Shown: piece by piece, positions 46,835-49,969 of the stretch
Layout: each line of letters begins with the position of its first letter
Position numbering within the stretch: position 1 is the stretch's first letter
Position numbers and translations under genes: made by a program
The notes under the pieces: model-generated
What the model was told of the DNA's origin: nothing
Database searches by the model: none
Seen by the model: the letters and a program-made list of their open reading frames with translations, nothing else
Assembly (NCBI GenBank): GCA_964482335.1
Contig: CAYZXA010000001.1
Span: 24,983 to 88,982 of the forward strand
DNA: 64,000 nt
DNA from: an uncultured Candidatus Saccharibacteria bacterium
GTDB taxonomy: Bacteria; Patescibacteriota; Minisyncoccia; Minisyncoccales; MHMH01
Direction of reading: 5' to 3'

Positions 46835-48231
46835 ATTTAGAGGAGCTCACCATTACCAAGGCTCATCAAGGATTAAAGAAAAAACAATTCTCAGCTCTTG
46901 AACTTTGCAAAGCATATTTAGACAAGATCGAAGAGGGTAAGGAGGTCCATGCTTTTTTAACAGTGAACGAGAGCTTGGCCTTATCTCAAGCAAAAAAGAT
47001 AGATGATTTAATTGCTGTAGGCAGTGAAATGCCAGTTCTGGCTGGATTGCCTTGCGCTGTCAAAGACAATATTTTAGTTGAGAACGTGAGATGTACGGCT
47101 GGCTCCAAGATTTTAGGCAATTACATTGCTCCCTATAGTGCTACTGTCGTAGAAAAGCTCAAAAGCCAGGGAGCTGTTATTTTGGGCAAAACCAATATGG
47201 ATGAGTTTGCCATGGGTTCCTCGACCGAAAACTCAGGATTTGGAGCAACAAGGAATCCCCATGACTTAACAAGGGTGCCTGGTGGTTCATCGGGCGGGTC
47301 AGCGGCTGCTGTAGCTACTGGCGAGTGTTTATATGCTTTAGGCTCTGATACTGGTGGTTCTGTGCGTCAGCCTGCTTCTTTTTGCGGAGTAGTTGGTTTA
47401 AAGCCTACTTACGGAGCAGTTTCCCGCTATGGCTTGATTGCTTTTGCTTCTTCCTTGGACCAGATAGGGCCAATCACAAAAACAGTGGAAGATGCTAAAA
47501 TAGTATTTGAGGCTATCTCTGGGAAAGACGAGTTAGATAGTACTTCAGTCAGCCCAAAAATAGGGATCCAGAAGTTAAAGAATGTCAGGATTGGCGTGCC
47601 CAAGGAATACTTTGTTAAGGGCATGGATAAAGAGATTGAGAAGATGATCAGAGCTGCCATTAAAAAGTATACGGATAAAGGCGCAAAAGTAATTGAAGTT
47701 AGCTTGCCCCATACTGAATATGCTCTGCCTGCTTACTATATTATTAATCCCTCGGAAGCTTCAGCTAACTTGGCCAGATATGATGGCATAAAGTACGGTT
47801 TTTCTAAAAAAGAGAAATCATTGATAGATGTTTATTTGCAAAGCAGGGGACAGGGTTTTGGCGCAGAAGTTCGCCGCAGGATTATGCTGGGCACTTACGC
47901 TCTGTCATCGGGTTATTACGAAGCATATTATCTGAGGGCTCAGAAGGTTAGAACCAAAATTAAGGAAGATTTTGATAAAGCTTTTAGCAAGGTTGACGTG
48001 ATTGTTACTCCTACTTCGCCAACCACAGCTTTTAAGATAGGCGAGAAAACCAGCGATCCTTTAACTATGTATCTTTCTGATATTTATACTGTTTCTATTA
48101 ATTTAGCTGGTTTGCCTGCTATTTCTCTGCCTTGCGGCAGAATAGGCAAATTGCCAGTAGGCATGCAAATTATTGGCAAAGCTTTTCAGGAAAACATTAT
48201 TTTTAAAGTAGCTCAACTGTATGAAGATTGA
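46831..48231 (+). CDS. gatA: Asp/Glu-tRNA amidotransferase subunit A
   Basis: Amidase signature GGSSGGSAAAVA...GSDTGGSVRQPA. Confidence 0.95.
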   Translation: MNLEELTITKAHQGLKKKQFSALELCKAYLDKIEEGKEVHAFLTVNESLALSQAKKIDDLIAVGSEMPVLAGLPCAVKDNILVENVRCTAGSKILGNYIAPYSATVVEKLKSQGAVILGKTNMDEFAMGSSTENSGFGATRNPHDLTRVPGGSSGGSAAAVATGECLYALGSDTGGSVRQPASFCGVVGLKPTYGAVSRYGLIAFASSLDQIGPITKTVEDAKIVFEAISGKDELDSTSVSPKIGIQKLKNVRIGVPKEYFVKGMDKEIEKMIRAAIKKYTDKGAKVIEVSLPHTEYALPAYYIINPSEASANLARYDGIKYGFSKKEKSLIDVYLQSRGQGFGAEVRRRIMLGTYALSSGYYEAYYLRAQKVRTKIKEDFDKAFSKVDVIVTPTSPTTAFKIGEKTSDPLTMYLSDIYTVSINLAGLPAISLPCGRIGKLPVGMQIIGKAFQENIIFKVAQLYED

Positions 48232-48748
48232 TGTTGATACCATAATTTCATTTCTTACTTCCCAAGAAGTGCAGCAAGACTTATTCTGGGTTAAACTTGG
48301 TTTTTTGATTTTTTCCGGACTGTTAGTGCTTGGTATAATTATTTTAGCCCTCTTTAAAACTCATTATCTGCAATGGCGGTTTTTCCAGGACAGTTTTGAA
48401 TTTTTAACTTACCGCCAGTTTGGTGCCCGGAGAATGCAAGGAAAATGGAGAAAGATTTTGAAGCGCTTGGAAACCGGCCTTGAGTCAGAATACAAAATAG
48501 CCATTGTTGAAGCTGACAATATGTTGAACAATTCTTTGAACAGGATGGGCTATGTGGGAAAAACGCTTGGAGAAAGATTAGAGAAGCTGGCTTCGGCTAC
48601 CATACCCAATATCGACGAGGTTCACCAAGCTCATAAGCTTCGCAATTCTATTGTTCGCGATCCTGATTATCAATTGAGCTTGGAGGATGCTAAAAGAACT
48701 ATAGATATTTATGGAAAAGCCTTTACTAGTTTACAGATTTTAGCTTGA
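48221..48748 (+). CDS. membrane-anchored protein, unknown function
   Basis: One TM helix (LGFLIFSGLLVLGIIILALF) followed by a helical soluble domain. Confidence 0.45.
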   Translation: MKIDVDTIISFLTSQEVQQDLFWVKLGFLIFSGLLVLGIIILALFKTHYLQWRFFQDSFEFLTYRQFGARRMQGKWRKILKRLETGLESEYKIAIVEADNMLNNSLNRMGYVGKTLGERLEKLASATIPNIDEVHQAHKLRNSIVRDPDYQLSLEDAKRTIDIYGKAFTSLQILA

Positions 48749-48773
48749 TTTTTTCTTGAAATTAAAGTAGAAT
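48745..48773 (+). promoter_or_regulatory. putative promoter of the intron-containing tRNA
   Basis: TTGATT, 17 nt, TAGAAT. The -10 ends 7 nt before tRNA position 1. Confidence 0.45.
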
Positions 48774-48780
48774 ACTAGAC

Positions 48781-49053
48781 AGCGCCGTGGAGGAGTAGTA
48801 CCTCACCAGTCTCATAAATTTTTGTGACCTAAAATGGTAACATTTTATGGAAAAATTCCCGAAATTGCTGGGAACCCGTAAAAATATTTTATGGCAATCA
48901 GCAGCCAAGCTTCGACATTTTGTCGGAGAAGGTTCAGAGACTATAATGGGAACACCCTTTTATTTAAGGGAGATGGGATAGTCCGTTCCATTTGGAAACA
49001 AATGGCTAACACTAAAGAAGCTGGGGGCCCCCGTGCAATTCGGGGCGGCGCAA
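48781..49053 (+). tRNA. tRNA(CAU) gene interrupted by a group I intron (exons 48781-48815 and 49018-49053)
   Basis: The joined exons fold as a 71-nt cloverleaf. Acceptor AGCGCCG/CGGCGCA, D-arm GAGG-AGTAGTA-CCTC, anticodon arm CCAGT-CTCATAA-GCTGG, variable GGGC, T-arm CCCCG-TGCAATT-CGGGG. Confidence 0.75.
48816..49017 (+). mobile_element. group I intron, IC3-like (tRNA-type, Azoarcus/Anabaena-like core), 202 nt, no ORF
   Basis: Core strings TATGGCAA..GCAGCCAAGCTTCG and GAAGGTTCAGAGACTATAATGGG match remembered tRNA-intron cores. IGS TTGTGA (48822-48827) pairs with TCAT|AA. P2 has a GTAA loop. P7 is GACTAT/ATAGTC. P9 is CCATTTG-GAAA-CAAATGG. The terminal G is at 49017. Confidence 0.8.
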
Positions 49054-49066
49054 CAAAGATTCTATA

Positions 49067-49095
49067 TTGTCATATTTTTAGACCTACGGTATAAT
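49067..49095 (+). promoter_or_regulatory. putative promoter of the endonuclease-like ORF
   Basis: TTGTCA, 17 nt, TATAAT. The -10 sits in the loop of the GACCTAC/GTAGGTC hairpin (49081-49120) that abuts the ATG. Confidence 0.45.
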
Positions 49096-49121
49096 GAAAG
49101 AATACTTATAACTGTAGGTCC

Positions 49122-49832
49122 ATGGCTAGAATTATAGAAAAAAATAAAGCGCTAAGACTGCGCCAAAAAGGGAAAAGTATAAATGAAATTGCTAGAAGAT
49201 TAAAATTACCAAAAAGCACTGTTAGTGTTTGGTGTCGTGATATTAAACTTACTTCGGAACAGATCGGAAGATTAGCAAAAAGACAAAAATCTGGAAGTTA
49301 TAAAGGAAGAATGAAATTTTTAGAAAGAGTAAGAAAAAAAAGAATGGAAGAGATGATAAGATTGAGAAAGGAAGGAATTCAAGAGATTGGTAAGATAAAA
49401 AAAAGAGATTTATTTGTTGCTGGAATTGCAATGTATTGGAGCGAAGGAGTGACTTCTTCAAATAGCGATGAAGTAAGTTTTTCTAATTCAGACCCCAAAA
49501 TGCTTCTTTTGATGTTGAGATGGTTTAAAGAGATTTGTGGCGTATTAGATAACCAATTTGTTATTCAAATCAGAATCAATAAAATACATAAACAGAGAAT
49601 AAAAGAGATTGAAAATTATTGGTCTAATATAACAAAGATTTCATTAAGCCAATTTACTAAAACGATTTTAATAAAAAGTAAATTGAAGAAGATTTATCCT
49701 AAGACCGACGCTTATTACGGTACTCTAAGAATAAAAATTCGACGCGGTACTCAATTAAGAAGAAAGATTAATGGTTGGATTGAAGGATTGGCTAGGCGGG
49801 GTAGCTCAGTTGGTAGAGCAAAGGACTCATAA
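49122..49832 (+). CDS. free-standing HTH + LAGLIDADG-like homing endonuclease candidate
   Basis: N-terminal HTH (GKSINEIARRLKLPKSTVSVW). LFVAGIAMYWSEG helix followed by the EVSFSNSDPKMLLLMLRWFKEICGV beta-alpha pattern typical of single-motif LAGLIDADG enzymes. The last 38 nt are the 5' half of the next tRNA. Confidence 0.55.
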   Translation: MARIIEKNKALRLRQKGKSINEIARRLKLPKSTVSVWCRDIKLTSEQIGRLAKRQKSGSYKGRMKFLERVRKKRMEEMIRLRKEGIQEIGKIKKRDLFVAGIAMYWSEGVTSSNSDEVSFSNSDPKMLLLMLRWFKEICGVLDNQFVIQIRINKIHKQRIKEIENYWSNITKISLSQFTKTILIKSKLKKIYPKTDAYYGTLRIKIRRGTQLRRKINGWIEGLARRGSSVGRAKDS

Positions 49833-49867
49833 GCCTTAGGTCGTGGGTTCAAGTCCCACCCTCGCCA
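49795..49867 (+). tRNA. tRNA with anticodon CAT (elongator Met or lysidine-Ile2), canonical, no encoded CCA
   Basis: GGCGGGG-TA-GCTC-AGTTGGTA-GAGC-A-AAGGA-CTCATAA-GCCTT-AGGTC-GTGGG-TTCAAGT-CCCAC-CCTCGCC-A. Confidence 0.88.
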
Positions 49868-49892
49868 CATTAAAATTTTAATATTGAATTCT

Positions 49893-49969
49893 GGGGACGT
49901 AGCTCAATTGGTTAGAGCACATGCTTGTCGAGCATGGGGTTGCCGGTTCGAGTCCGGTCGTCCCCGCCA
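49893..49969 (+). tRNA. tRNA-Asp (GTC) with encoded CCA
   Basis: GGGGACG..CATGC-TTGTCGA-GCATG..GCCGG-TTCGAGT-CCGGT-CGTCCCC-G-CCA. Confidence 0.9.

Follow-up and report, generated by a model that had tools for sequence, protein, structure and literature searches.

The intron of the Azoarcus pre-tRNA-Ile(CAU) is small, holds no open reading frame (ORF), follows the third anticodon base and uses a short CAU/GUG P1 helix with a U·G wobble. It is named the pre-tRNA-Ile intron and is placed in subgroup IC3 (PMC3984707). The intron of cyanobacterial (Synechocystis-type) tRNA-fMet genes lies between positions 33 and 34 and, when mobile, encodes an endonuclease of the PD-(D/E)XK type within itself (PMC13011429). 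In 95 complete Patescibacteria genomes, Nakagawa et al. (2026) found introns in tRNA-Met(CAU) at 33/34 only, in two Microgenomatia; no CAU tRNA among those genomes had an insertion at 36/37, no tRNA introns of class IC were reported in the phylum, and tRNA features and flanking endonuclease genes were not discussed (PMC13011429). The locus described here is a tRNA(CAU) gene split at 36/37 in a 64,000-nucleotide (nt) stretch of a contig from an uncultured Candidatus Saccharibacteria bacterium (CAYZXA010000001.1, positions 24,983 to 88,982), referred to throughout as the window. The contig has approximately 38% GC and its genes include GatC/GatA, MreB, ProRS and PheST.

The sequence and its fold, together with orthology, covariation and membership in an intron family, make it very probable that the locus encodes a functional initiator tRNA (tRNA-fMet type) of Parcubacteria/Paceibacteria-like Patescibacteria (candidate phyla radiation), interrupted by an ORF-less, self-splicing group I intron; from these lines of evidence we infer splicing, charging, formylation and use on the ribosome. 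Like its cyanobacterial counterpart, the intron is of group I, sits in the anticodon loop of an initiator gene and is patchily present; unlike it, the intron lies at 36/37 and contains no ORF, and a LAGLIDADG-fold gene is found outside the tRNA gene. It differs from the Azoarcus intron in its host, which is an initiator tRNA and not tRNA-Ile2, and in its phylum. The gene is made up as follows, in coordinates of the window:

48781 to 48815, plus strand: tRNA(CAU) exon 1, positions 1–36, AGCGCCGTGGAGGAGTAGTACCTCACCAGTCTCAT, whose final T is the T of CAT
48816 to 49017, plus strand: group I intron of 202 nt without an ORF, between positions 36 and 37 (Rfam RF00028)
49018 to 49053, plus strand: tRNA(CAU) exon 2, positions 37–73

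The group I covariance model recognised the conserved catalytic core (P3–P9) in a full-length model match at 48803–49005 (RF00028, 91.8 bits, E 8.7e-24, gathering score 50). A single junction, 48815|48816 and 49017|49018, obeyed group I rules. The 5' exon there ends in U36, which pairs as a U·G wobble with a G of the guide GUGA, the guide standing opposite U33-C34-A35-U36, and the last base of the intron is G49017, followed by AAGCUGG. From its sequence the intron is predicted to splice itself; for introns at 35/36, Nakagawa et al. confirmed self-splicing by RT-PCR sequencing. The core motifs AGCCAAGC and AAGGU.(C/U)AGAGACUA are similar in the Azoarcus intron and in that of the window, which looks IC3-like in that its core motifs resemble those of the introns of Azoarcus and Anabaena. 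ARAGORN's own intron call, i(37,183), was rejected, as the 36/37 junction has the required U·G pair and terminal G and agrees with homologous introns, and a 33/34 junction as in cyanobacterial tRNA-fMet is impossible because no CATAA stands ahead of GCTGG on the 3' side.

A default ARAGORN run called no tRNA at 48781–49053, and genomes of this kind can consequently seem to have no initiator tRNA. The sequence spliced in silico was called as tRNA-Met(cat) with an unpaired A/A atop the acceptor stem, and RNAfold returned the same cloverleaf as both minimum-energy and centroid structure, not a better alternative fold with canonical loops. Exon 1 supplies A1, the 5' acceptor strand, the D-arm GAGG/AGUAGUA/CCUC with A11, the anticodon strand CCAGU and C32 U33 C34 A35 U36; exon 2 supplies A37 A38, GCUGG, a 4-nt variable loop GGGC, the T-arm CCCCG/UGCAAUU/CGGGG and the 3' acceptor strand CGGCGCA. 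The product of 71 nt has A1·A72, A11:U24, a 7-nt D-loop AGUAGUA, the T-loop UGCAAUU and an anticodon stem CCAGU/GCUGG composed of A29:U41, G30:C40 and U31·G39 within its flanking pairs. Its anticodon loop is the standard 7 nt, CUCAUAA, and all 20 stem pairs besides 1:72 are intact. The original prediction, made from the letters alone, had placed exon 1 correctly and had listed the length, the A1/A72 end, A11:U24, the anticodon stem and both loops; each of these was borne out by the sequence, ARAGORN and RNAfold. CCA is unencoded at 49050–49056, where the gene ends in GCAAC with only C74 present; C74 is common to all orthologues and CCA is encoded in some of them only.

Related Patescibacteria loci were found through a GatA scan of genome contigs, in which the best among the matches listed were only 50–59% identical and most came from other phyla, one GatA peptide pattern being universal in amidases. 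The loci showed a conserved cluster order of GatA, hypothetical gene, tRNA(CAU), tRNA-Met and tRNA-Asp. A short tRNA(CAU), a canonical tRNA-Met(CAU) and tRNA-Asp followed one another in L010 (a Parcubacteria metagenome-assembled genome), L040 (Nomurabacteria), L056 (Saccharibacteria) and L085 (Paceibacterota). In the window the second tRNA(CAU), at 49795–49868, starts 742 nt past A73, as the canonical downstream copy of the original prediction; it has a paired G1:C72, G18G19 and U54 U55 C56 and is probably tRNA-Met, the elongator-type partner of the intron-split tRNA. Closer relatives were reached through homologues of the upstream protein encoded at 48221–48748. In L087 (90% protein identity) exon 1 is identical and the same intron is present with two compensatory pair changes in P2, while L088 (69%) has an intronless gene in the same place with an identical D-loop AGTAGTA, anticodon stem CCAGT/GCTGG and T-loop TGCAATT. 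Intronless orthologues were also seen in L091–L093, L094, L097, L100 and L102. By its position, given the same gene order and the intronless relatives at the same place, the intron-bearing gene is the orthologue of a tRNA widespread in Patescibacteria.

These comparisons bear on the proposal that the gene is a decaying duplicate or pseudogene that survives as an intron carrier, with the real initiator elsewhere in the genome. It is true that the textbook consensus is not followed at position 18, at position 55 and in two of the three G:C pairs of the anticodon stem, and that another copy may lie outside the 64 kb of genome inspected. Decay is nevertheless very unlikely. Compared with L088, the window has changed G5:C68 to C5:G68 and G6:C67 to C6:G67, two double compensatory changes that argue against it, and the remaining stem pairs are intact. 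The same apparent defects, including identical loops, are found in syntenic intronless orthologues, where they belong to the sole initiator-type genes of those loci; A18 and G55 covary without exception; the intron guide still fits its exon; and the tRNA region is 100% identical in at least 20 contigs from several metagenomes or samples, JGI 3300005645 and ENA ERZ27248954 among them. A reader applying consensus rules would label such an intron-split initiator a pseudogene.

For a larger comparison, metagenomes were scanned with the pattern GTGCAATTCNNNNNNNCGCAAC. The scan returned 120 stretches, of which roughly half were tRNA(CAU) genes; the other half, chance matches without a tRNA, were discarded. 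Metagenome matches and protein-anchored loci together gave 66 distinct mature sequences, the orthologues to which the counts below refer. The anticodon CAU was invariant in all 66. Cells forming a standard pair amounted to 91.6%, compared to 70.3% in shuffles, and 15 pairs had changed on both sides, compared to 11.2. The covariation check on homologues that had been proposed with the original prediction thus came out in favour of the cloverleaf, the stems covarying with a score of 0.54 (shuffles, 0.12; slid partners, no more than 0.10); covariation was seen in every stem.

The family has the marks of an initiator. An A11:U24 pair marks initiators, and G4:C69 is a determinant for the formylase and MetRS. 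Position 1:72 was C·A in 34 orthologues, A·A in 29 and U-A in 3 and hence unpaired in 63, a paired share of 4.5% compared to 100% at pairs 2–7. G2, C3 and G4 were present in 66/66; G2:C71, C3:G70 and G4:C69 are thus invariant, their 3' partners and A73 being fixed by the search pattern. A11:U24 was found in 64/66, the D-stem of the window being GAGG/CCUC, and G30:C40 in every sequence including that of the window. The flanking anticodon-stem pairs were looser: 31:39 was G:C in 46 and U·G in 18, and 29:41 was A:U in 49. The combination A:U, G:C, U·G was common to 18 sequences, among them the window and intronless genes.

The window tRNA accordingly agrees with the E. coli metZWV/metY tRNA-fMet in its CAU anticodon, the lack of a Watson-Crick 1:72 pair, G2:C71, C3:G70, G4:C69, A11:U24, A73, G30:C40 and the loop CUCAUAA. 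It departs from it in having A1·A72 in place of C1·A72 and only the middle G:C pair of the anticodon stem (A29:U41, G30:C40, U31·G39), as well as in its 7-nt D-loop, its 4-nt variable loop, A18/G55 for G18/Psi55, the unencoded CCA and the intron. The pairs 1:72, 2:71 and 3:70 are Fmt determinants, and initiator function in E. coli both requires G30-C40 and is satisfied by it alone (PMC5389676). Natural initiator variants of the type au/GC/gu have been listed from mycoplasmas and alpha-proteobacteria, and as in these, 29:41 and 31:39 are relaxed in the window and G30:C40 is retained; unlike in these, where the order is purine:pyrimidine, 31:39 in the window is U·G, as in 18/66 (PMC5389676). Since the orthologues share the unpaired 1:72, the acceptor pairs, A11:U24 and G30:C40, we read the family as the initiator tRNA of the lineage, and the features that had been called degenerate as its normal state: a 1:72 position at which A·A and C·A are interchangeable, the middle G:C pair only, D- and variable loops of 7 and 4 nt, and an alternative elbow. 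A large bacterial radiation would then initiate with the experimentally minimal determinants only, the unpaired 1:72 and G30:C40.

Of the three identities that the original prediction had left open, the unusual initiator is thus the one favoured, by positional orthology, the acceptor determinants, A11:U24, A73 and G30:C40. A lysidine-type tRNA-Ile2(CAU), like the Azoarcus tRNA-Ile with its group I intron at the same 36/37 site, would share the anticodon loop CUCAUAA, the insertion site and A73, and is extremely unlikely all the same. As an elongator it needs a paired 1:72 for EF-Tu, while the family is unpaired there in 63/66, and G2:C71, C3:G70, G4:C69 and A11:U24 are initiator and Fmt determinants. 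The E. coli TilS and IleRS determinants are C4:G69 and C5:G68; half of these are present, the window having C5:G68 and, in place of C4:G69, G4:C69.

Several points weigh against an initiator at this locus. One of the three canonical anticodon-stem G:C pairs is present where bacterial initiators have three, and the pyrimidine:purine pair U·G at 31:39 is absent from the natural variants listed in PMC5389676. The pattern that recovered most of the 66 sequences fixes the T-loop UGCAAUU and the 3' end CGCAAC, which biases the frequencies of G55, A72 and A73; C69–A73 were fixed by it and the 5'-side partners (positions 1–4 and 18) were left free. The sequences moreover share phylogeny, and the counts exceed the number of independent events. 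The part of the genome that is visible is 64 kb, a second, intronless initiator gene may lie elsewhere, and a tRNA-Ile2 gene was not located within the window. A motif search of the window found no fmt or def, which is uninformative on formylation; extended to truB, tilS and the CCA-adding enzyme, the search found only an MnmA-like SGGVDS motif and is equally uninformative on Psi55 synthesis.

Taken as an initiator, the gene would work as follows. A precursor would be transcribed, possibly from A1 or nearby, the guide GUGA would pair with U33-C34-A35-U36, and the intron would excise itself by means of an external guanosine and its terminal G (49017), with ligation of the exons. CCA would be added post-transcriptionally and the 71-nt product charged by MetRS, which would recognise CAU, A73, G2:C71 and C3:G70. 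The unpaired A1·A72 together with G2:C71, C3:G70, G4:C69 and A11:U24 would direct it onto the initiator path, where it would be formylated, provided that Fmt is present, and kept away from EF-Tu, and G30:C40 would act as the ribosomal P-site signal. In the elbow, the G18-Psi55 contact would be replaced by A18/G55, with G19:C56 and U54/A58 kept.

The elbow departs from the consensus in a regular way. Aligned to 7-nt loops that contain GG (AGAGGCA, AACGGTA), the D-loop is numbered A14 G15 U16 A18 G19 U20 A21, with A18 at 48797 and G19 at 48798; in exon 2, U54 is 49034, G55 49035, C56 49036, A72 49052 and A73 49053. The claim that G18G19 is missing was therefore true in the literal sense only: G18 alone has changed, to A, and G19 is kept by alignment and can pair with C56. 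Likewise, the elbow contacts are altered as predicted insofar as G18/U55 has become A18/G55, but G19:C56 (48798 and 49036) is retained, as it is in 66/66. U54 and A58 are present in the window's UGCAAUU and invariant in the alignment. The canonical G18-Psi55 contact is absent from the window, which has A18 and G55. Across the family G55 occurred with A18 in 62/62 sequences and U55 with G18G19 in 4/4 (L040, L081, L085, L127), with no mixed state. Among protein-found loci, which are free of the T-loop pattern bias, nine distinct sequences were A18/G55 and three G18/U55. The description of the two loops as degenerate does not hold up: the same loops are found in 61–62 of the 66 distinct orthologues, far above chance, and make up a conserved alternative elbow.

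T-loops of RNAs other than tRNA often have G as their second base, and the loop fold should therefore tolerate G55. Psi55 has been called universally conserved, the ribosome, RNase P and T-boxes recognise the exposed face of G19:C56, and the 18-55 pair of P-site tRNA affects translocation according to work cited in the same paper (PMC4810234). We read the alignment to mean that the outer face persists, as does the pair that closes the T-loop, and that a covarying purine-purine contact has taken the place of the 18-55 contact inside. Such an initiator would provide a natural test case for the P-site role of the G18-Psi55 contact and the dispensability of Psi55. The tRNA-Met(CAU) of the two Microgenomatia have GCAA 3' ends and 4-nt variable loops as in the window; unlike the window they have a canonical elbow with G18G19/U55 (PMC13011429). 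A search of an incomplete literature library returned nothing relevant on Patescibacteria initiator tRNA or on an A18/G55 pair, which is absence of evidence. Five features are new relative to the searchable literature: covariation of A18 with G55, an A·A combination at 1:72, an anticodon stem of the type au/GC/ug, a family of introns at 36/37 of initiator genes, and the linkage of the intron to a free-standing LAGLIDADG-fold gene.

Elongator tRNAs on the same contigs were mostly canonical at the elbow (132 of 152); 8 were A18/G55, 7 were G18/C55 and 4–5 had A19:U56. Within the window, tRNA-Pro, tRNA-Met and tRNA-Asp all have the canonical elbow, and the 18/55 linkage holds in the 8 elongators, all from other contigs, namely L167 (tRNA-Cys, His, Trp, Phe), L196 (Cys, Leu), and L114 and L220 (tRNA-Met). 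All four elongators seen on L167 are A18/G55, which suggests that some lineages have replaced the G18-Psi55 contact genome-wide. C55, in the T-loop UCCGA and with G18G19, was seen in seven elongators, namely the second tRNA-Met of L091, L116, L134, L138, L174 and L182 and the tRNA-Thr of L122; U, G and C are thus all found at position 55 in Patescibacteria. T-loops with UUU combined with D-loops with GA for GG in L121 (tRNA-Gly, Trp), L169 (tRNA-Arg) and L147 (tRNA-Asp) look like covariation from G19:C56 to A19:U56.

Introns homologous to that of the window interrupt position 36/37 in L117, L129, L164, L174, L200, L224, L226 and L228, and a second set lies at 33/34 in L081, L114, L122, L124 and probably L184. 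Altogether, 13 of the initiator loci examined were interrupted at one of the two sites, and Rfam confirmed eight related-locus introns as group I. The 36/37 introns align across the core, and several helices vary between members, apparently in a compensatory manner. In nine introns the guide is GUGA where the host has U33 and GUGG where it has C33 (L117, L174, L224, L228), a match that on these sequences is covariation across the exon-intron P1 helix. C33, in the loop CCCAUAA, replaces the near-universal U33 in 23/66 sequences, including L094, L097, L100, L102, L117 and L174; it is otherwise known from some eukaryotic initiators.

An initiator-like tRNA with a specialised role, being a second isoacceptor or one whose supply is regulated through splicing, and not the sole initiator, would fit the distinct A18/G55 elbow that separates it from the window's elongator tRNAs. 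Nakagawa et al. speculate that Patescibacteria introns act as RNA-based regulators (PMC13011429). Such a role is nonetheless highly improbable: none of the syntenic loci has two initiator-type genes, and L200, with the intron, and L182, without it, encode an identical mature tRNA, by which the intron looks like neutral cargo. The two are not alleles of one population, as they share the tRNA exons alone and their flanks are unrelated.

If the gene is the initiator, an essential and apparently single-copy gene has repeatedly been occupied by introns at two sites, beside a free-standing LAGLIDADG-fold gene. The surroundings of the tRNA in the window are as follows:

48221 to 48748: gene for a hypothetical, lineage-specific protein, just upstream of tRNA(CAU)
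48745 to 48773, plus strand: promoter-like site TTGATT-17-TAGAAT (consensus scan, 9/12 matches), 7 nt before tRNA position 1
49067 to 49095, plus strand: promoter-like site TTGTCA-17-TATAAT (promoter scan, 11/12 matches) in the spacer between tRNA and ORF
49081 to 49120, plus strand: conserved hairpin or palindrome overlapping the promoter-like site and ending just before the ORF's ATG (spacer 49054–49121)
49122 to 49832, plus strand: free-standing ORF of 236 amino acids with helix-turn-helix and LAGLIDADG fold
49795 to 49868, plus strand: canonical elongator-type tRNA(CAU) (ARAGORN; Rfam tRNA, 71.6 bits)
49893 to 49969, plus strand: tRNA-Asp(GUC), third tRNA of the conserved cluster

The ORF has an N-terminal helix-turn-helix and a C-terminal domain with the motif LFVAGIAMYWSEG. 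The comparison values listed for it were 8.3 for WhiA, 8.1 for an intein endonuclease, 7.8 for I-Tsp061I, 7.4 for I-CeuI and 7.1 for I-DmoI, from which the C-terminal domain has a LAGLIDADG fold. Across 30 homologues, E108 and G109 of the motif do not vary; compared with the consensus the motif has two extra residues, and the fold also occurs in non-catalytic WhiA-like relatives. Family members are approximately 227 amino acids long and more than 447 were found. ORF homologues adjoin 8 of 9 assessable intron-bearing initiator loci, compared to 2 of 36 intronless ones (Fisher p = 1.8e-6), and in a protein-side sample 3/3 homologues lay 65–70 nt downstream of an initiator bearing a 36/37 intron. 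The loci with the ORF beside the initiator include the window, L091, L117, L129, L164, L174, L224, L226 and L228. It is present in L091 and absent in L092 and L093, the tRNA being identical in all three. This co-occurrence with introns and the presence/absence polymorphism suggest that intron and adjacent LAGLIDADG-fold gene form a mobile element in two parts, of the collaborative homing type; the protein might also serve as a maturase. Phage collaborative homing, in which an ORF-less intron goes with a free-standing endonuclease, shows the same strong co-occurrence of the two parts (PMC3984707); unlike there, the host in the window is a tRNA gene of a cell and not a protein gene of a phage, and the protein has one LAGLIDADG-fold domain joined to a helix-turn-helix. 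If true, the two-part element would carry collaborative homing from phages to cellular tRNA genes.

The hairpin at 49081–49120 is predicted in six loci, with both arms changing in step and a TATAAT-like box in the loop; it could occlude translation on read-through transcripts or be an operator for the helix-turn-helix domain. The last 12 or so codons of the ORF and its stop lie inside the downstream tRNA-Met gene (49795–49832), the stop TAA coinciding with U36-A37-A38 of its anticodon loop, and the homologous ORF of L091 spans the whole tRNA gene. Further endonuclease-type genes crowd the same tRNA cluster in L224, L226 and L114: a PF14528 LAGLIDADG_3 ORF between tRNA-Met and tRNA-Asp (L224, 2323–2940), a GIY-YIG ORF directly 3' of the helix-turn-helix-LAGLIDADG ORF (L226, 2195–2449) and a second copy of the latter's family (L114, 5358–6026).

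Elbow and element can be joined in a wider reading, which is tentative and, taken as a whole, rather unlikely. In it the A18/G55 elbow would be a lineage-specific initiator identity element of Parcubacteria-type Patescibacteria, together with the A1·A72 end and the single G30:C40, and not a neutral isosteric swap, and the initiator gene would in addition be the homing site of the two-part element. The elbow would be read by a reduced translation or processing machinery (the ribosomal P site/L5, IF2/IF3, RNase P, or absent TruB action); with A18/G55 in place of G18-Psi55, the initiator tRNA could not carry Psi55.

Upstream of the tRNA, the promoter-like box also occurs in L087, the relative with 90% identity. 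The -10-like TAGAAT ends 7 nt before A1, so that leaderless transcription of the tRNA is possible though speculative; it is equally speculative that a purine at position 1 would favour transcription initiation. ORFs of 67 amino acids (48891–49094) and 44 amino acids (48847–48981), which public annotations of identical contigs list as genes, overlap the intron and exon 2 and are almost certainly spurious. The anticodon stem of the tRNA-Met at 49795–49868 is closed by an A31·G39 mismatch (49822–49834), and A31·G39 or A31·A39 is also seen in L010, L056 and L085. Odd D-arms, for example with AA at positions 8–9 and GUGU/GCAC stems, were found in initiator-like tRNA(CAU) with the T-loop UGCAAUU or UGCGAUU in L010, L121, L155, L177, L194 and L197; ARAGORN missed five of these six genes and shortened that of L010 by one base at the 5' end.

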